Source of the DNA: a virus
Taxonomy: Duplodnaviria; Heunggongvirae; Uroviricota; Caudoviricetes
Reading direction: 5' to 3' (one strand)
IMG/VR virus record: IMGVR_UViG_2563366928_000011
DNA: 21,625 bases
A program made the translations under genes and the position numbers. The notes beneath the pieces were generated by a model. That model did no database searches. It had not been told where the DNA came from and worked only from the letters and a program-made list of their open reading frames with translations. This document shows positions 3,976-16,616 of the stretch, in pieces (the stretch's first letter is position 1; each line of letters begins with the position of its first letter).

Positions 3976-6702
3976 CTATTCCCATTCGCTAACATCTTTC
4001 ATGCCACTGAGGGTAGCTACAATCCCGGCCCTTGTCAGTTTCACGAATTCTTCAGCCCCAACGGCATCACGAATTGCTTTCATGGCAATTTTATTGGCCG
4101 AAAATCGTTTCTCTGCTGCGGCGATCGCTGCTGGTGATGCCCCTGCGCGCACTGCTTTTGTAGCTTCCTGAACGGCTTTCTCTATCGCATATCGACCACT
4201 TCTTGTCGCCCCAATCTTAGCCACAGCATTTCTTAGCGCGCCACCAGCAACCAAACCACTTATCGAACCAATTACACCACCGCCAAAGCCTCCAGCGATC
4301 GCACCTGACTGTTGAACTCCGTTCATAATCACGCCGACGATCTTTGGAAGGCCTGAATCGAGCGTTTTGAGAGCCTCAGTTGTTCTTCCCGTGCGCTCTA
4401 CGTATCGCTGCGGTCTGGTACTGGCTTTAGCGAGTACACCGAACTCTTTCATCATTCTACCGAGATCTGGCGCATGACGACTGATGGCGTTTACATTCTG
4501 CTGGGTCATGAGCTTGGCAAAATACTGGATACCTGACTCTTCACCGATTCCTCCCTTCTCTCCCTGCGCCACAGCATGCTGAAGAATAGATGCTATTGCA
4601 GGTTGGCGTTCTGCTTCCGGCAGCGCGGAGATAAGACGGTGAAAAGCTCCCGTTCCAGTGTTTGCGGATGCCTTAAGCGTATCGGCACCTTTTCTTACCA
4701 TAGCGTCTGATGCGAGATCTCGACCAAAAACAGATTCGGCATTTTGTTTGGCGATAATGTAACTTTTAGAGAGATCGTTAGCTTTCTGCCATTCTGTGAG
4801 GAAGTTTCCTTTTTCAGCCATGATGCGCATGTCATCAGTGATAGCTCTGCGCATTTCTCCGGCAATCCGGGCGGCATTGGCCTTACCTGCCCGGGTGTTT
4901 GCTTGTTCAGCATCAGCAAACTTAGTACGCCATGCCTTCATCCCGTCGAAGGTTATGCCGCCACCTTGGTTGTTGGCAGCCTGAAACTGTTTCATCTCCG
5001 GGCTGAGTGGAACATTGGCTGCTTTTTCTGCTTGGACGACAGCCATCCCATTACTCATTTTCATCCTTTCGCGTGGCATCGTGCTTCGCAGTTCTGCCCA
5101 TGCCATATTCTCTGCTGTTTTCATATCACTGAGGCTCGCGATGATGCGCTCTTTAATTGCTGCGCTTTTTTCTGATGCGCTTCCAGACTCAGCACCGAAA
5201 TCAGACAACTGCTTATTCAACTTTGAGGATATTTCATTGAAGGCCGTAAGGTGAGCATCCTGAACATTCCCAGGAGTTGATGCCAGAACACCTTCTGCTT
5301 GGGCAATTCCACGACTACCTGAGCGCATTCCAGGCGTCAGGGTGTTGATATTAATACCAGTGATTTTCGCCGCCTTAGCGACATCATCTCTGACGTTTGA
5401 TGCCTGCGATGCGATATGCTCTCGGCCTACGGCAGAACGCGCTGCTTTCGATACATCATTGGCGGTTTCCAGAGTATTTGCTGCCCCTAACACATGGCCT
5501 GATTGATTTGTATTACTCCGCAATACATCTCGCATTACGTCACTGGCTGTCTGTCCGCTCTTTATTAAAGCGCGTGCTCCTAGCGATCCTGCTAGGCCAA
5601 TACCTGTCTCTTTTGCTAGGTCTTCTGGGCTGATCTGCCCGTTCTTTTGGGCGTTCACCAATGTACCTGGCAGGTTTTCTGCCAACATACTAGCCACCTT
5701 TGTGGCCGCACGTTCAGCACGTGGAGCGTTGGCAACTGAAGAAGCTGCGGTAGCTGCCTTTCCTGCACCTAATCCTGTAATAAGGTAAGGTGCTAGCTGC
5801 TCACCAGCCTGCGCGTATGGATCTGTAGGTTGGTCTACTGGGCGAAAGACAGGTGATATGGGCGTGTATGTGCCATCACCCACACCAAGCTTCTGAGCTG
5901 CCCATGCTCCGGCTGATTGCGCCGCATTGACTACCCCCACGCCTGCGTCCATTACATCAAACGGTATATTAGCAATCCCTCTGGCCATCTGCTCTGGCGC
6001 AGCTTTCAGTCCTGGCGAAAGATATTCCATCTCAGGATTAAGGTTAGACTTGGCTACTTGCTGCTGCGGTTCCCCGGCATTTTCATCGGCGAGAAACTGA
6101 GCTCTTTTCTGCTCCCATGAACTGGCTGTTGGTAGTCCTGCTTCTATGTTCTTAAATTGCTGACGTTTTGCTTCCCATGCAGAAATATCTCCCACCTGAG
6201 AGATTTCTTTATCAAGCTCTGAGTAGTCAGGCTGCTGAAGATTGCGATGTTGACTGGTTTGTGCAAACTGCAAGATTTCACTGTCATCAGGGATTATTCC
6301 GGCATCTGCAAATTTACTTACGTAATTAGCCGTTTCATCTGGCAGTGTAGATTTACCGTTTCTGACGGCATTAATACGAGCATAGCCAGAATTATACCCA
6401 GCCAATGCCATACCTATATCACCAAATCGCTTCATTCCTTTATTGAGATGGTTTGCTGCGATATCCATTTGCTTTTCAAATGGCAGTGAGCGCGGATCTG
6501 TTCCACGATAACCAGCATCACTCATTACTGAGGGCATCAGTTGAGCAAATCCTCTAGCTCCTTTCGGTGACTCGGCACTTCCGTTACCACTAGATTCATT
6601 GCCAACTAATGTTTCCATCGTCCCTGATGGGAAACCATATTTTTCATCGAGATGACGGGAATAGGCTTTCTGTTTTTCTGTCAGTTGTGCCATCATTGCC
6701 AT
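3976..6702 (-). CDS. Large virion/ejection-type protein with N-terminal SLT lytic transglycosylase domain
   Basis: 908-aa ORF. N-terminus carries SLT-like motifs (GNESSGNGSAE..GARGFAQLMPS and ALAGYNSGYARI). Long Ala/Gly/Gln-rich helical remainder. Last gene of a four-gene cassette; start overlaps the stop of the upstream gene. Confidence 0.75.
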   Translation of the reverse strand: MAMMAQLTEKQKAYSRHLDEKYGFPSGTMETLVGNESSGNGSAESPKGARGFAQLMPSVMSDAGYRGTDPRSLPFEKQMDIAANHLNKGMKRFGDIGMALAGYNSGYARINAVRNGKSTLPDETANYVSKFADAGIIPDDSEILQFAQTSQHRNLQQPDYSELDKEISQVGDISAWEAKRQQFKNIEAGLPTASSWEQKRAQFLADENAGEPQQQVAKSNLNPEMEYLSPGLKAAPEQMARGIANIPFDVMDAGVGVVNAAQSAGAWAAQKLGVGDGTYTPISPVFRPVDQPTDPYAQAGEQLAPYLITGLGAGKAATAASSVANAPRAERAATKVASMLAENLPGTLVNAQKNGQISPEDLAKETGIGLAGSLGARALIKSGQTASDVMRDVLRSNTNQSGHVLGAANTLETANDVSKAARSAVGREHIASQASNVRDDVAKAAKITGININTLTPGMRSGSRGIAQAEGVLASTPGNVQDAHLTAFNEISSKLNKQLSDFGAESGSASEKSAAIKERIIASLSDMKTAENMAWAELRSTMPRERMKMSNGMAVVQAEKAANVPLSPEMKQFQAANNQGGGITFDGMKAWRTKFADAEQANTRAGKANAARIAGEMRRAITDDMRIMAEKGNFLTEWQKANDLSKSYIIAKQNAESVFGRDLASDAMVRKGADTLKASANTGTGAFHRLISALPEAERQPAIASILQHAVAQGEKGGIGEESGIQYFAKLMTQQNVNAISRHAPDLGRMMKEFGVLAKASTRPQRYVERTGRTTEALKTLDSGLPKIVGVIMNGVQQSGAIAGGFGGGVIGSISGLVAGGALRNAVAKIGATRSGRYAIEKAVQEATKAVRAGASPAAIAAAEKRFSANKIAMKAIRDAVGAEEFVKLTRAGIVATLSGMKDVSEWE

Positions 6703-8012
6703 CCCTTAAGTTTTGCCTGATAGTAACTTTCCGGCAGATAGCCATGTGCGGTCACATAATCCTTAACCAGTGAAGGATCCTGCAACAGCATTTTGGTATC
6801 AGTTTCTTCGTCCTTAGATTTGGTTACAGGAATACCGAGCCCGGCAATCTGTCGTTTCTGCATTCGAATAATTACGTCCTGCGCTTTATTCAACTCTCGC
6901 AAAAATGCCTCATTGCTGGTTGCTGACTTAATGCCATTTTGAGATTGCATAAGGGCAGCCCTTTCCCCTTCGGTTGGGTTAGAGCCAAAAGTCCCTTTGA
7001 GGCTAGGCAGAATAACCTTTAGGTTGTATTCATCAGCTTTGGCGCGTAGGCTTCGTGTGTCTTCTGCTACATCAGGAAGGAATCCAAACCCCAGCGTCAG
7101 GGGGTTATAGTTCTGCGAGCGGGTAACGGCCGAAGGATGTTTCCCTACAATTCCCGCCAGTTCATGACCCACTTCAAGCGCAGAGTTCAAGGAGTCGATG
7201 TTACCTGCAACAGTATTAATTTTATCGTTCATCTTCTCCACTTTCGCCTGCTGTACCTTGCTCAGTTCAGCATTGAGCTTGTCTCTCTCGATGTCATTTT
7301 GAGCACGTCCAAGTCGTGCTTTCAGAACCATTTCTCTCGTGCGTAGTTGGTTATCGGATAGGACTTTGAACTGCTCCATATCGAGACGTCGATTACCCTG
7401 TTCCGCATTAACCTGAGCATTATATGCGGATGTATCTGCGTTCTGCTGTGCAATGCTCTGCCCTTGCTGCTTCTCTTGAACACTAAAGTAACTATTTGGA
7501 TCAGCATGGAGGTGGATGAGGTCAGTGATTCTGTTGAATTCCTGTGGGTCATTCTGCCAAGACTGATAAACCTCTTCAGCAGGAAGACCAAATCGCTGTA
7601 ATACTGGATTTGCCTGCTGAATGGCCTTCTGCATGATCAGTGGATCTCCAGTTTGTGACGCAAGACGCAGATTCATGGCAGCGTCAGCGGTCTGTCGATT
7701 TTGCTCAGCATCAATGAATCCCATCTGTTTTTGAGAATCAGCCATAAACTGGGGATACTGGGCCATTAACTTCTGCACGCCAACACGATCATTATTAGCT
7801 ACCGCACTACCCAACCGTGCCTGATATTCTTTTAACTGCTGGGAAATTTGCGCCTGCTGATTAATCTCAGCAACGCCTCTTAGCCCCTGTAGCGCCATTA
7901 AACCTACGTTTGGCTGCTGCTGATACTGCACAGGCTGAGGAACGGAAGAACGAGGAGCATTATCATTTTGCGGTGCCATGCTAGGCAGCCCGCCAAGTTG
8001 CCATGTCGCCAT
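6693..8012 (-). CDS. Ejection/DNA-transfer-type protein, putative (P22 gp20-like by size and position)
   Basis: 439-aa ORF. Q/A/N-rich, predicted coiled-coil character. Tightly packed between the 225-aa and 908-aa genes. Assignment rests on architecture, not on a search. Confidence 0.6.
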   Translation of the reverse strand: MATWQLGGLPSMAPQNDNAPRSSVPQPVQYQQQPNVGLMALQGLRGVAEINQQAQISQQLKEYQARLGSAVANNDRVGVQKLMAQYPQFMADSQKQMGFIDAEQNRQTADAAMNLRLASQTGDPLIMQKAIQQANPVLQRFGLPAEEVYQSWQNDPQEFNRITDLIHLHADPNSYFSVQEKQQGQSIAQQNADTSAYNAQVNAEQGNRRLDMEQFKVLSDNQLRTREMVLKARLGRAQNDIERDKLNAELSKVQQAKVEKMNDKINTVAGNIDSLNSALEVGHELAGIVGKHPSAVTRSQNYNPLTLGFGFLPDVAEDTRSLRAKADEYNLKVILPSLKGTFGSNPTEGERAALMQSQNGIKSATSNEAFLRELNKAQDVIIRMQKRQIAGLGIPVTKSKDEETDTKMLLQDPSLVKDYVTAHGYLPESYYQAKLKGWQ

Positions 8013-8689
8013 TAGAATCCAAGCCCCCCAACAAGACCAATAAGCCCACCACCAATAGCGCCGGCCGCAGTTCCTATTCCAGGAACAACGGAACCAAGTT
8101 GCGCACCCGCTAAAGCGCCTGATGCTGCCCCACCAATACCACGCGCAAGACTGGATGGCTGCTGCGCCTGACCTGCACGAATAGCGCCAAGCCCCTGCAA
8201 GAGTTGTCCGGTATTATTGGCGTAGTTTTGCCCTGCCGTTGCCTGCCCTGATGCCGCATTCATCCCGACATTTAGCAGGTTTCCATAATTTTGCATTTGC
8301 CCACTGAGCCAATTGTTATAAAGCATGGGCGCAATGGAAGATAACTGGTTACTGGTAGCTGTTGAGCCAAGCCCCCCGGTAGCTTCTGCTGAGACAAGGT
8401 TCTGATAACGGGCCTGATCTGCCTGTGTTTTATATAAACCAGAACCAAAGAAATCATTCGCGGCTTTATTCTGCCCTTCCAGAGTCATCAGTCCTTGCAG
8501 TTGTTGTAAAGCAGGCAATCCGACTTCTGCATACGGCTTGAGATTATTCATCACCGTATTCCACTGCTCGCGCTGCAAATCAATTGCCTGCTGCTGGGCC
8601 TTCGCCTGAGCTTTAGAGGCACCACCATCACCGCCTTTTTCGTATACGGCACGATTGAGATGTTTATGAGCTATATGGGTAATTAACAT
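8012..8689 (-). CDS. Ejection/DNA-transfer-type protein, putative (P22 gp7-like by size and position)
   Basis: 225-aa ORF. Gly/Ala-rich with hydrophobic Gly-zipper C-terminus (GGLIGLVGGLGF). ATG at 8689 overlaps the upstream stop as ATGTTAA. Confidence 0.55.
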   Translation of the reverse strand: MLITHIAHKHLNRAVYEKGGDGGASKAQAKAQQQAIDLQREQWNTVMNNLKPYAEVGLPALQQLQGLMTLEGQNKAANDFFGSGLYKTQADQARYQNLVSAEATGGLGSTATSNQLSSIAPMLYNNWLSGQMQNYGNLLNVGMNAASGQATAGQNYANNTGQLLQGLGAIRAGQAQQPSSLARGIGGAASGALAGAQLGSVVPGIGTAAGAIGGGLIGLVGGLGF

Positions 8690-9144
8690 TCGCTGAATTC
8701 CTTATATTGTTGCCGAGTTAACTGATAAAGCGTTACGCCGACGGGTTTACCACATCTGATATAAGCATCATCAAGGTGACCAACACGGGTAGCGCCAAGC
8801 AAACGGATAATTGCCCGTCCATATTTTGTGGTGTCAGGAACCATAGTGATGCTGTTAAGGAATGGTGAGTTTTCGAGAAGCCACTTGCAGAATAATCGAT
8901 GCCCTTGCAGTGCATATTCACCACGGAATCCGGGGTCGTACACCGCATGGCATTCAACAACGCTATGCCAGAAGTTACGCACTTCATGAACGCCAGCCAG
9001 CACTAATCCTTCGTAGATGCCGAGATATACCGCATCAGGCTTGATGTAGTACGTGTGCCCCGGCTCAACAATATTTTCGGTATTGCCTGGCTCGTTAAGA
9101 AAGGCCTGTAATCGCACAGGGTTATCAATAAATTTTAGTTCCAT
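8683..9144 (-). CDS. Hypothetical protein, first large gene of the ejection-like cassette (gp14-like position)
   Basis: 153-aa ORF with protein-like composition, 16 nt downstream of the small RHH-like ORF. No motif recognised. Confidence 0.55.
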   Translation of the reverse strand: MELKFIDNPVRLQAFLNEPGNTENIVEPGHTYYIKPDAVYLGIYEGLVLAGVHEVRNFWHSVVECHAVYDPGFRGEYALQGHRLFCKWLLENSPFLNSITMVPDTTKYGRAIIRLLGATRVGHLDDAYIRCGKPVGVTLYQLTRQQYKEFSEC

Positions 9145-14112: not shown

Positions 14113-14715
14113 TCAGTGCGTCACTGGTTCCGCTGGCATGCCGTTTTCATTCAGTTCAGCTATAAAGCTGTTGTGAAGTTCAGCAAGCGTTTCACGACCA
14201 AATGGAGTCAGTGCTCCTTGTTCCACATCCATCATGGCTCTGTAGAAAATGATGGCGCGTTCTGTGCCAGACTCGATGCCAAAACGTTCTATCATCGCTC
14301 CCTCAATGTTGTTTGCCATAGCGAGGCGCTCTGCTACTGGATACAGCGGCATGGCGACGATGCCGTTGGAATAAACAGCCACTTCGGAAGGATTGCCAGT
14401 ATCATCAATGATGCTGACAGTGCCGTTTTCCTCTCTCATTTCCAGCATGAATACTGTTGCGATCAGCCATCTCCACATAATGACGTTATGCTGTGATGTG
14501 TAATCGAAATATCCCTGGTTGCCGCCATCGGCAATAGCGAGATGTATTGACATACCTTCATCTGGTTTATCGTCATAATCCCCGGCATCCAGACGATTTA
14601 CGGCATCAATATATGAGACGGCCTCAACGCGTTCTGTCATGCCATCGTTGCTGCGGTACATGATGTTTACGCCGTCAGGCGTTGCTTCTGCATGGAAAGT
14701 TAAGAAATTATTCAT
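14113..14715 (-). CDS. Hypothetical strongly acidic protein (about 200 aa)
   Basis: Start revised from the track ORF (14820) to ATG at 14715: GAGG RBS and ATGAATAA overlap with the upstream stop. Many Asp/Glu, very few Lys. Confidence 0.5.
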   Translation of the reverse strand: MNNFLTFHAEATPDGVNIMYRSNDGMTERVEAVSYIDAVNRLDAGDYDDKPDEGMSIHLAIADGGNQGYFDYTSQHNVIMWRWLIATVFMLEMREENGTVSIIDDTGNPSEVAVYSNGIVAMPLYPVAERLAMANNIEGAMIERFGIESGTERAIIFYRAMMDVEQGALTPFGRETLAELHNSFIAELNENGMPAEPVTH

Positions 14716-14929
14716 GTTTCGCCTCGCCTGAATGATTCTGTAACTCATATTTGCCCAACAATTCGTCCGCTTCCTGAATAGCTTCTGGTACGCCATTGAG
14801 CAGTGACATAACCGCGCCAATCATTAACTTGTCTCTGTTGCTGGGGCTGGCCCCTTCAAGCCAGAACCCTAAAACAGTCTGAACCTGTTCGATGCGACAT
14901 TGCGCTTCAATGAGCTGGATGTTGGTCAT
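14708..14929 (-). CDS. Hypothetical small protein (73 aa)
   Basis: ATG at 14929 overlaps the upstream TGA (ATGA). GGAG RBS. Confidence 0.5.
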   Translation of the reverse strand: MTNIQLIEAQCRIEQVQTVLGFWLEGASPSNRDKLMIGAVMSLLNGVPEAIQEADELLGKYELQNHSGEAKHE

Positions 14930-15189
14930 TTCGCACTCTCCACATCGATTAAACCGATATCTATCAGGGAGGTAACTTTTTGTAGCCAGCTATTGATTAC
15001 TGTCGCCTGTTCCCCTCCCACCGAGGGAACAATCTCATTCATCACATGAACCAGACCTGTGCGCGCTCTGGTAAGCCGTTCAGTCGCGCAATCTGCGGGA
15101 GTGAATGTGTCTGGATATGGCTCTTCACGCCCCAGCAATGATTCAATTTCCAGCTCACACGGATGACGATAAATTAAGTTGATATTCAT
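14926..15189 (-). CDS. Hypothetical small acidic protein (87 aa)
   Basis: ATG at 15189 overlaps the upstream TGA. GGGGGTGA RBS. Confidence 0.5.
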   Translation of the reverse strand: MNINLIYRHPCELEIESLLGREEPYPDTFTPADCATERLTRARTGLVHVMNEIVPSVGGEQATVINSWLQKVTSLIDIGLIDVESAK

Positions 15190-15380
15190 TTTTCACCCCC
15201 AAGAATTACCAGCTCGGCACGGGCATCGTTAACCAAAGATGAGCACGCTTTAATCGCATCCACGACATCAGCAGCGTCCATTTCTTCAGCCGAAAGACTG
15301 ACAGCAACCAGGACAGCCGCTGCTTGCTCGATTAATTGAAGTGCGGACGTAAGGCGAGGGGTATTAATTGAGTTATTCAT
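15186..15380 (-). CDS. Hypothetical small protein (about 64 aa)
   Basis: Start revised from 15437 to ATG at 15380: GGGGG RBS and ATGAATAA overlap with the stop of the upstream reading frame. Confidence 0.45.
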   Translation of the reverse strand: MNNSINTPRLTSALQLIEQAAAVLVAVSLSAEEMDAADVVDAIKACSSLVNDARAELVILGGEK

Positions 15381-16440
15381 TGGTTGCCCCCGTTTTTCCT
15401 GGCATTTCGCCACCTTCCAGCAGGAAATGAACGTCACGAACGGCGAGATCCAATATCGCGAGTAACGCCTTCAGTCTTTCGTCTCGTGAGGGAGAGTTGC
15501 TCACCAGAATGTCGTTAATCACTTCTGTCAGTGTGATGATCTGGCTTGTGCGTTCGAGGGGATCCATATGCACATCGTAGGTTTTAATCATGTGCCACCT
15601 CCATGCGGATACGACCAGCAAAAAAGCAGATGTGATCGCGCACCAGAGAACGGCGAGCATCGCGTTCAGACTCGGCAGCAATATGATGAATTTTGGCGGT
15701 AATTGTCGGGCAATCGCGGCGAACTGCGGCGATAATCCAGATAAATTGCGGTTTTTGGGTAGGGGTAGTAGCCAGCATGTGGCAGCCTCCATTCGATAGC
15801 ATGTAACGCTACCACCGGAAACGCCAATTTCGCTGGTGGTAGCCCAGACAGGGTTGGCGTAACCGGCTCGAATGGATACCGGCGCTTCCGAAGAAGCCCC
15901 TGCCTGAGCCACCATTGATTGACAAAGGCGCTGGATTATACACCAACGCCCAAAAAATGGGTGAGTCAGACCTACGACATAAAAAAAGACGCTCGGCGCG
16001 TCATATGTCGCCATTCGATTTACCAGGACGCCAATCCCGGCACCCGTTTTATGAGGTGCCTTATAACCATAAACCGTGTTGCCGCATAACGGCAAGCTCT
16101 TTTTTATGGACTCCGAAAACTCACTATTGGAAGAACCAGAAGCACAGTACATCGCGCTCATTTCGTTAACGTCACGCGCGTGGACGAATGTTTTTGTGGA
16201 GTCACTACACGAGCGGAAGACATCATCTACGACCAGAAATTTTCTGGCGCAGCCGCTGACCTTCTCAAGGCTAATATCATCGCCCGAGATTTCTGGTATG
16301 GTTAAGGCATCCGTTCCGACCACCAGCAAATGATAAACTTTGCTTGTATCTGCTGTATTAATGCCTGACTTTGCCGTCATATTTCTGGATTTTGGCGACA
16401 TGCCAGCCAGTGAAAATGTCTTCTTCTGGACGGGTATCAT
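15373..16440 (-). CDS. Hypothetical protein; long ORF of uncertain internal structure
   Basis: ATG at 16440 with GGAGG RBS and ATGA overlap with the upstream stop. First ~170 residues look protein-like. Residues ~170-283 are W/C/S-rich (junk-like). Last 72 aa are again protein-like with their own GGAGG RBS (ATG 15591). Confidence 0.4.
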
Positions 16441-16616
16441 TGGTTAACCTCCGCGAACTCCTTCATGAAACGCGCCAGCGGTTGTACGCATGGCGATTGA
16501 TACCCGTCGCGATAAAACGTCACTCGGTTGTGAGACACGCTTTCGACAGTAACGAGTGCTCCGTGGGCATCTTTGTAGCGTTTTTGTGGTTGTGGTGTTC
16601 CTGTTGGCTTAGACAT
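16437..16616 (-). CDS. Hypothetical small protein (about 59 aa)
   Basis: Start revised from 16703 to ATG at 16616: GGAGG RBS and ATGTCTAA overlap with the antirepressor-like gene stop. Confidence 0.45.
   Translation of the reverse strand: MSKPTGTPQPQKRYKDAHGALVTVESVSHNRVTFYRDGYQSPCVQPLARFMKEFAEVNQ

Follow-up and report, generated by a model that had tools for sequence, protein, structure and literature searches.

A 355-codon open frame in the probable immunity and early-leader module of a P4-type satellite

We analysed a viral sequence of 21,625 nt, the IMG/VR record IMGVR_UViG_2563366928_000011 (the window, by which we mean this whole stretch), and focused on a 355-codon open reading frame (ORF) on its minus strand (15373..16440). 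The other two frames of this strand contain 16 and 19 stop codons over the same 1068 nt; therefore, the openness of the long ORF goes beyond chance and calls for an explanation. We found that this interval is probably the immunity and early-leader module of a P4-type satellite, a phage-inducible chromosomal island (PICI) similar to EcCIMP1, in which the 355-codon ORF is an eta-type frame. The long ORF is neither a sequencing error nor an ordinary protein. The regulatory module is of a known kind, and what is new is a previously undescribed frame variant together with an extended leader.

The sequence contains two RNA genes, their targets, an overlap of one target with a Shine-Dalgarno (SD) sequence, a conserved promoter-like block and a coupling junction, and the frame over them is maintained. 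These elements are listed here with the coordinates of the window.

15373..16440, minus strand: long ORF of the eta type ('Ash family'), 355 codons, ATG start, spanning all the elements below
16437..16452, minus strand: translational-coupling junction GGAGGTTAACCAATGA, with the SD sequence of the long ORF and its ATG, which overlaps the TGA stop of the DUF4222 gene upstream
16066..16095, minus strand: putative promoter resembling P4 PLE, with TTGCCG (16095-16090), an 18-nt spacer and TATGGT (16071-16066), in a conserved block
15982..16059, minus strand: isrK/seqA-type RNA (Rfam RF01394, 67.1 bits)
16018-16011, minus strand: seqA target box TCGAATGG in the isrK linker, co-varying with the C4 loop
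16002-15988, minus strand: intrinsic terminator hairpin of the isrK RNA, followed by U7
15832..15919, minus strand: C4/CI-type antisense immunity RNA (Rfam RF01695, 79.5 bits, full-length match)
15876-15868, minus strand: seqB specificity loop UCCAUUCGA, the loop of the second C4 hairpin
15796-15788, minus strand: seqC target TCGAATGGA, running into the icd SD sequence GGAGG (15790-15786) and ATG (15778-15776); the whole element is 15776..15796
15584..15778, minus strand: icd/kil-like gene of 64 codons, one base behind the frame of the long ORF
15373..15591, minus strand: orf72, a small gene in frame with the long ORF and nested in its 3' end, with its own SD sequence (15602-15598)

The window holds every sequence element of the P4 eta scheme, and for this reason we read the long ORF as the counterpart of eta. 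In the passages of PMC10111431 that summarise Forti et al. 1999, P4 eta holds an internal constitutive promoter, the transcripts of which end early via CI/seqA interactions and are processed to the CI RNA; Kil is a truncated Eta; and full-length Eta is made only from the upstream late promoter, coupled to an alpA homologue, with its translation preventing termination. The isrK RNA has been equated with P4 seqA and the C4 RNA with the P4 CI RNA (PMC3632133, PMC4825925, PMC10111431). The ORF is surrounded by genes for an integrase, an AlpA-type regulator, AntA/B and a DUF4222 protein, by small ORFs, and by a P4-type primase gene and homologues of P22 ejection proteins.

RNA genes, targets and start of the long frame

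The initial annotation described the middle of the ORF as junk-like, with a composition as in a non-coding frame. This stretch indeed does not evolve as a protein, but it holds two RNA genes, whose Rfam matches lie well above the curated thresholds at which they were sought (gathering scores of 45 bits for RF01695 and 50 bits for RF01394). The C4 RNA has a minimum free energy of −47.2 kcal/mol (z = −5.8), and its match, together with the sequence just downstream, aligns with the P4 segment annotated as 'put. ash gene' and 'cI gene product (AA 1-137)'.

For comparison, we used a wide sample of 67 loci from one-genome-per-species contigs, collected via Icd alignment, in 58 of which both RNAs were located by Rfam (L016-L074, Enterobacterales); the loop-target and coupling analysis covered 52 loci. 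The close sample comprised 10 E. coli relatives with complete genomes for ORF integrity and an alignment of nine E. coli relatives for variation. L005, L006 and P4 (L007, NC_001609) served as further comparison loci, and EcCIMP1 was represented by E. coli MP1 (L083; NZ_CP139039, 3565000-3586500). The isrK and C4 pair was also found by Rfam in P4, L005, L006 and 56-58 further loci.

Nearly all the variation among the nine aligned E. coli relatives lies within 15780-16050, where seqA, seqB and seqC change together. Of the eight specificity types that they form, five are found in the close relatives, and L005, L006 and P4 add another three. Complementarity is kept in every type, with G·U pairs at seqA in two of them; in the window, seqC is a perfect complement of the C4 loop. 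Pairing was judged by direct complementarity. Across the 52 loci, the matches of a loop to its own targets averaged 8.7 nt (seqC) and 7.4 nt, compared with 5.3 and 4.7 nt for cross-locus matches. At least 15-21 different seqB/seqC specificity cores occur among the 58 Enterobacterales loci, a diversity that suggests many hetero-immune groups of P4-like elements and PICIs.

The promoter-like block sits between the ORF start and isrK, and its predicted transcription start (~16059) is the first base of the isrK match. The motif GGCTTGC...TAT.GT is present at a fixed distance in 22 loci, including P4. We also noticed a perfect TATAAT directly preceded by TG (15935-15942, minus strand) in the 62-nt spacer between isrK and C4, which may serve the C4 RNA as an additional, optional promoter. 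A 38-nt block with this TATAAT is deleted in two loci (L012 and L013), and the spacer of L005 is likewise short (21 nt).

The good ribosome-binding site that the initial annotation noted at 16440 is present: the ATG is preceded at a distance of 7 nt by GGAGG (16452-16448) and overlaps the stop codon of the DUF4222 gene as ATGA. The same ATGA overlap with the upstream gene is found in most of the 52 loci, where the upstream gene is usually a 91-codon frame at the P4 vis position, the positional counterpart of the P4 alpA/vis homologue. In most loci, 75 nt separate isrK from the first ATG of the frame upstream of it; in the window, this distance is 381 nt, which amounts to an additional 306 nt or 102 codons.

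Maintenance of the open frame

The long ORF is intact in all 10 of the close E. coli relatives, also where RefSeq has an 'ash pseudogene + Icd', and it is open in EcCIMP1 too. Between the isrK start and the icd ATG, the eta frame is stop-free in 8 of 8 specificity types, with up to 7 stops in each of the other frames. Over the same segment in the 58 loci (15779-16059 in the window), we counted 245, 3 and 147 stops in frame 0, the eta frame and frame 2, respectively. The eta frame is stop-free in 56 of the 58 loci, and the only two loci with stops in it (L046 and L071) may be decaying copies. To obtain an expectation, the bases observed in each column of a gapless set of 25 distinct sequences were freely combined. 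This gave 27.8 expected stops in the eta frame, where 0 are observed, while the other frames matched their expectation (114 stops against 126 expected, and 53 against 48).

The lengths of the segment are also consistent with a maintained frame. The isrK-to-C4 distances of 98, 101, 125, 128, 140, 146, 176 and 185 nt are all 2 mod 3, and the lone exception in phase is L071 (139 nt), which also has a stop in the eta frame. Our first working idea, that Ash is a mere spurious translation of RNA genes, was dropped because the frame proved stop-free, first in 8 of 8 types and then in 56 of 58 loci, and because its indels preserve the frame.

The peptide, in contrast, shows no constraint. In the frame of the long ORF, the variable columns of C4 are spread over the three codon positions as 15/13/16, and the synonymous to non-synonymous counts over the RNA stretch are 0:21, 3:19, 6:30 and 5:28, with no codon periodicity. 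The three codon positions hardly differ in column entropy in C4 (0.58, 0.58, 0.61) and isrK (0.54, 0.51, 0.54), while the third position of icd has twice the entropy of the first two (0.61, 0.60, 1.18). Taken together, the depletion of stops, the frame-preserving lengths and the flat codon-position entropy in the compared sequences indicate that selection keeps the frame open and does not preserve the peptide. When trained on well-supported genes of the window, a codon-usage log-odds score was uninformative, because open frames score well whether they are coding or not.

The initial annotation regarded the ORF as composite, which we confirmed in that a promoter-like block, two RNA genes, icd and orf72 all lie within it, and it described the central third as rich in tryptophan, cysteine and serine. 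Tryptophan (2.8-5.9 %) and cysteine (2-3.7 %) are indeed enriched in residues 124-283, which are poor in charged residues (6-12 %), compared with both ends (W 0 %, charged 22-26 %); serine is not enriched there (7-10 %, compared with 15 % at the N-terminus). Residues 124-232 (nt 15745-16071) match the Pfam family PF10554 Phage_ASH, from which the RefSeq name of the ORF derives, with 105.2 bits (threshold 26; E = 3e-30). This matched stretch consists of the promoter −10 box, isrK, C4 and seqC; therefore, the PF10554 membership of the long ORF reflects conserved RNA sequence read in a conserved frame. The N-terminal 123 residues have no PHROG, Pfam or NCBIfam match.

These data bear on the possibility that the ORF encodes a genuine functional 355-aa protein, an 'Ash' or Bro-network regulator, with which the RNA genes would simply overlap. 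In its favour are the length and conservation of the ORF, its good SD sequence and the Pfam match described above; Phage_ASH has been treated in the literature as a Bro-network domain, and translation of the ORF downstream of isrK is detectable in Gifsy-1 (PMC4825925). However, there is no codon periodicity and no synonymous excess anywhere upstream of orf72, the 'conserved' residues correspond to conserved RNA nucleotides and the variable ones follow RNA pairing. In addition, the N-terminal 105-125 residues show no similarity among the window, L005, L006 and P4, residues 50-85 are the antisense of a terminase fragment described below, and the C-terminal continuation depends on the clade, being Kil/Icd in 50 loci and the +1 frame of icd followed by another gene in 8. 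We consider such a protein quite improbable. The initial annotation would have been refuted by homologues with an uninterrupted 355-aa protein conserved in its middle region. The outcome is mixed: we found the uninterrupted ORF, whereas its middle is not conserved at the amino-acid level.

Alternatively, the long ORF could be an annotation artefact, an accidental longest frame over an interval in which only the two RNAs, icd and orf72 are real. This would agree with the unconstrained middle, with the coincidence of the Pfam Ash domain and the RNA genes, with an N-terminal part that is unrelated between lineages, and with RefSeq itself, in which one and the same ORF structure is now an 'ash family protein', now an 'ash pseudogene + Icd-like'. 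An accidental frame is hard to reconcile with the stop counts in the 58 loci and in the gapless set, with eight length classes that all keep the frame, or with the recurrent ATGA overlap with the upstream gene, and P4 eta is reported as translated in the relevant passages of PMC10111431. We therefore regard the artefact as unlikely.

A third explanation, also raised initially, is that a recent frameshift, a lost stop, a pseudogene or an assembly error fused separate genes. What speaks for it is that the window differs from P4, L005 and L006 by 1 nt directly ahead of the icd ATG. This difference lies in the non-coding spacer between the SD sequence and the ATG, however, and all the component genes are intact. 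Moreover, the same arrangement is present in 10 of 10 independent complete E. coli genomes and in EcCIMP1, all with the same 355-codon frame, and in 8 species-level loci of several genera. This recurrence across independent assemblies refutes the explanation, to which we assign next to no probability. The suspicion that the ORF call was wrong somewhere does not hold either, since the frame is under clear selection to stay open. Nested overlapping genes, one of the three options offered in the initial annotation, proved to be the correct one.

Several points weigh against our reading of the interval as an eta-type module. The 58 loci share a common ancestry, so that the probabilities implied by the stop counts are too small and overstate the case, although neither its direction nor its size is in question. 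The openness across icd needs no selection, because the +1 frame of icd is stop-free in 70 % of the loci where it is not used. The first 105 codons are confined to the Escherichia lineage, and codons 1-48 are uninformative (9 synonymous and 14 non-synonymous changes); this pattern gives a ribosome start at 16440 no independent support. A generic consensus promoter scan did not report the internal PLE-like promoter, which falls below the scan threshold, and isrK alone folds no better than shuffled sequence (z = −0.78). Finally, we infer promoter activity, RNA processing, coupling, termination and its translational relief from the sequence and by analogy with P4.

The combination of an open frame and a free peptide in the 58 loci is comparative evidence that the translation-dependent bypass of RNA immunity described for P4 is general, extending beyond P4 to the P4-like elements and PICIs of Enterobacterales.

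The icd-orf72 frame variant and related systems

The 64-codon out-of-frame ORF and the last 72 codons, for both of which the initial annotation pointed out a start context, each have an SD sequence and a start of their own. The former starts in the context GGAGGCTGCCACATG (15790-15776) and is a real Icd-like gene: ORF 15584-15802/15778 matches NCBIfam NF033153 phage_ICD_like over the full model length with 69.9 bits (cut-off 25; E = 1.3e-19), and its protein aligns with the kil part of P4 ORF137. The latter, orf72, starts in the context GGAGGTGGCACATG (15602-15589).

The frame relationship between icd and the long ORF differs between loci. Among the 58 loci, 50 have icd in frame with the long ORF; the 8 in which it is out of frame belong to Escherichia, Klebsiella michiganensis, Pluralibacter, Leclercia, Symbiopectobacterium, Buttiauxella and Phytobacter; it is likewise out of frame in the E. 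coli relatives of the window, while kil/icd is nested in frame in P4, L005 and L006. The spacer between the SD sequence and the ATG reads GGAGGCTGCCAC-ATG in the window, ...GCTATG in L005, ...CACCATG in L006 and ...CATCATG in P4. The spacer of the window is thus 1 nt shorter than those of L005, L006 and P4, and consequently icd is out of frame with the long ORF. The long ORF crosses icd in the +1 frame of icd and ends in phase with orf72. The ATG of orf72 overlaps the icd stop (ATGATTAA), which places orf72 in this +1 frame, so that the long ORF ends at the orf72 stop and acquires its 'protein-like' C-terminal end. The orf72 stop in turn overlaps the ATG of the next gene (ATGAATAA).

We found no PHROG, Pfam (E ≤ 1) or NCBIfam match for orf72. 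A search of 5.8 billion proteins yielded only ~20 homologues, which are near-identical, and the conservation of orf72 therefore says little. The slot after icd/kil is occupied by unrelated small genes in L005, L006 and P4 (epsilon in the latter), each of which overlaps the icd/kil stop by 8-11 nt. We considered orf72 as a counterpart of P4 epsilon (PF25738 Derepression) and rejected this, because it has neither a Pfam match nor BLASTP similarity to it and shares its position alone.

By analogy with P4, the module may work as follows. In the resting island, transcripts from the internal promoter would be processed to the C4/CI RNA, which would pair with seqA and seqC, block icd translation and cause early termination, leaving the downstream replication genes silent. 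A helper phage would turn on the upstream operon (alpA, antA and the DUF4222 gene), and ribosomes ending the DUF4222 gene would re-initiate at the overlapping ATG at 16440 and translate through the promoter, both RNA genes and seqC. This translation would stop the RNA from folding and pairing and shield the transcript from termination, so that transcription could reach the primase gene. In the clade of the window, the long frame is out of phase with icd, and orf72 replaces kil/icd as the gene nested in frame.

Among the closest known systems is P4 itself, in which the eta frame has no stop over 214 codons, beginning inside vis and covering PLE, seqA, CI, seqC and kil. The two systems have the same order and strand of elements, C4 and isrK matches in Rfam, complementarity among seqA, seqB and seqC with seqC on the kil/icd SD sequence, a long ORF that starts upstream of the internal promoter beside the stop of the preceding gene, and a small gene that overlaps the kil/icd stop by 8 nt. 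They differ in that kil is nested in frame in P4 eta, while icd of the window is one base out and orf72 is nested instead. In addition, the ORF starts 381 nt upstream of isrK in the window and ~120 nt in P4, the extra leader of the window holding the terminase fragment; the upstream partner is DUF4222 in the window and an alpA/vis homologue in P4; and orf72, which follows icd, is unrelated to P4 epsilon.

The immI operon of P1/P7, which as described comprises the c4 RNA, a/b target boxes, icd and ant, resembles the window in having a C4-family antisense RNA processed from the leader with targets on both sides, a downstream target that covers the icd ribosome-binding site, and an Icd-type cell-division inhibitor as the first gene. 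The Rfam c4-a1b1 family also matches the isrK region in some related loci. In contrast to immI, the window has no antirepressor gene after icd, and antA lies upstream. The long upstream-coupled ORF is a feature of the P4 type and not of the P1 type, again judging P1 by its description.

The isrK-orf45-anrP region of Gifsy-1 in Salmonella (PMC4825925) likewise has an isrK RNA with a terminator, followed by the processed C4-like RNA STnc1160, and an ORF over the C4-like region that is conserved in nucleotides and variable in amino acids; translation of this ORF is needed in cis for the next gene (PMC4825925), which makes the region an independent precedent for our reading. It differs from the window in that its ORF is short (45 codons), begins only downstream of isrK and has an antirepressor gene as its coupled partner, and in that the short IsrK acts there as an activator in trans (PMC4825925).

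EcCIMP1, which was described as a PICI of E. coli MP1 (PMC11773190), shares its gene order and the 355-codon ORF with the window, and it is 96-99 % identical to the window over most of the length of the latter (~14 kb). An 'Ash family protein' is listed as a conserved gene in PMC11773190, and term searches of that paper found no mention of the RNAs, icd or the pac-like segment described below.

A terminase fragment in the leader and annotation of the locus

The extended leader of the window contains two further elements on the opposite strand.

16186..16292, plus strand, antisense to the long ORF: fragment of a small-terminase gene of the P22 gp3 type, 107 bp
16186-16207, plus strand: pac-like 22-mer GAATGTTTTTGTGGAGTCACTA at the start of the terminase fragment

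In 117 P22-like phages, nt 268-374 of gene 3, which encodes the small terminase, are 86-92 % identical to this segment (tblastn E = 5e-15). The left edge of the 22-bp pac site annotated in P22 marks the point where the homology starts, and the pac-like 22-mer shares 15 of 22 bases with this site. In our own comparison with the pseudo-pac pattern (PMC10996546), the window agrees at 15 of 17 positions and relatives with AAG at 16 of 17; position 10 is G in all satellite copies. The long ORF reads the fragment in the antisense frame whose second codon positions coincide with those of the terminase gene. The fragment lies within 'ash' ORFs of ~350 complete genomes and is also carried by EcCIMP1, but it was found in none of the non-Escherichia loci examined; being confined to the Escherichia lineage, it is not a general feature of the module. 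Synonymous and non-synonymous counts in six frames over the N-terminal 380 nt favoured no frame, and the corresponding leader of L005 has no phage match.

We compared the alleles of the fragment with helper terS genes and found AEDII as in an E. coli prophage and AEQVI as in P22. The idea that the allelic patches mirror the terS alleles of helpers fails for the commonest allele, AEKAI, for which the best phage match is 88 %. The window also encodes P22-type ejection and head homologues (3976-9144, minus strand; phrog_770, 917, 598 and 651, the last being a head-morphogenesis homologue), and one gene of this region is 81 % identical in DNA to the phage Kapi1. According to PMC11773190, the packaging mechanism of EcCIMP1 is stated to be unknown, and its transfer by the helper Kapi1 is very inefficient. 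Kapi1 was rejected as the reader of the pac-like site, since its TerS is unrelated to gp3 and has no DNA similarity there.

The segment may be a captured pac site, which we treat as a lead and not as a conclusion. As a tentative and on balance doubtful extension of the eta-type reading, a captured gp3-type pac region, lying antisense in the open leader frame, would explain the N-terminal third of the ORF. If so, EcCIMP1-like islands would be packaged by P22-like phages with a gp3-type terminase via the pac-like site, which would answer the packaging question of EcCIMP1 and account for the very poor transfer by Kapi1, a phage with a different type of terminase. The frame-shifted clade would also make an Eta-Orf72 fusion, having exchanged kil/icd for its neighbour as the nested gene. 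The candidate site offers a testable lead on the packaging of EcCIMP1-like islands.

The annotation of the locus varies within RefSeq. The long ORF is recorded in RefSeq as 'ash family protein' WP_032147413.1. In near-identical genomes with an equally intact ORF (L001, L002, L011 and L083), however, RefSeq gives two versions: either the 355-aa 'ash family protein' or an 'ash family protein, pseudogene, missing C-terminus' with an 'Icd-like protein' of 64 or 72 aa. None of the RefSeq records viewed has a separate call for orf72 or an annotation of either RNA gene. Neither version shows that the interval is a regulatory module, in which two RNA genes and a putative internal promoter are combined with two small genes that are nested or overlap.

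A related discrepancy concerns P4-like satellites, in a survey of which PF10554 serves as the 'epsilon (Ash)' marker (PMC8628076). In P4, we found that PF10554 Phage_ASH matches ORF137, the eta/kil frame over the CI RNA, whereas epsilon is PF25738 (P4 1669-2085 and 1389-1676, respectively). The 'epsilon' marker therefore really detects the RNA immunity region.

Downstream of orf72, we observed a chain of small ORFs without a family match (15186-15380, 14926-15189 and 14708-14929, minus strand). Each has an overlap of 4-8 nt with the stop of its neighbour, as in a translationally coupled early operon that leads to the primase gene.

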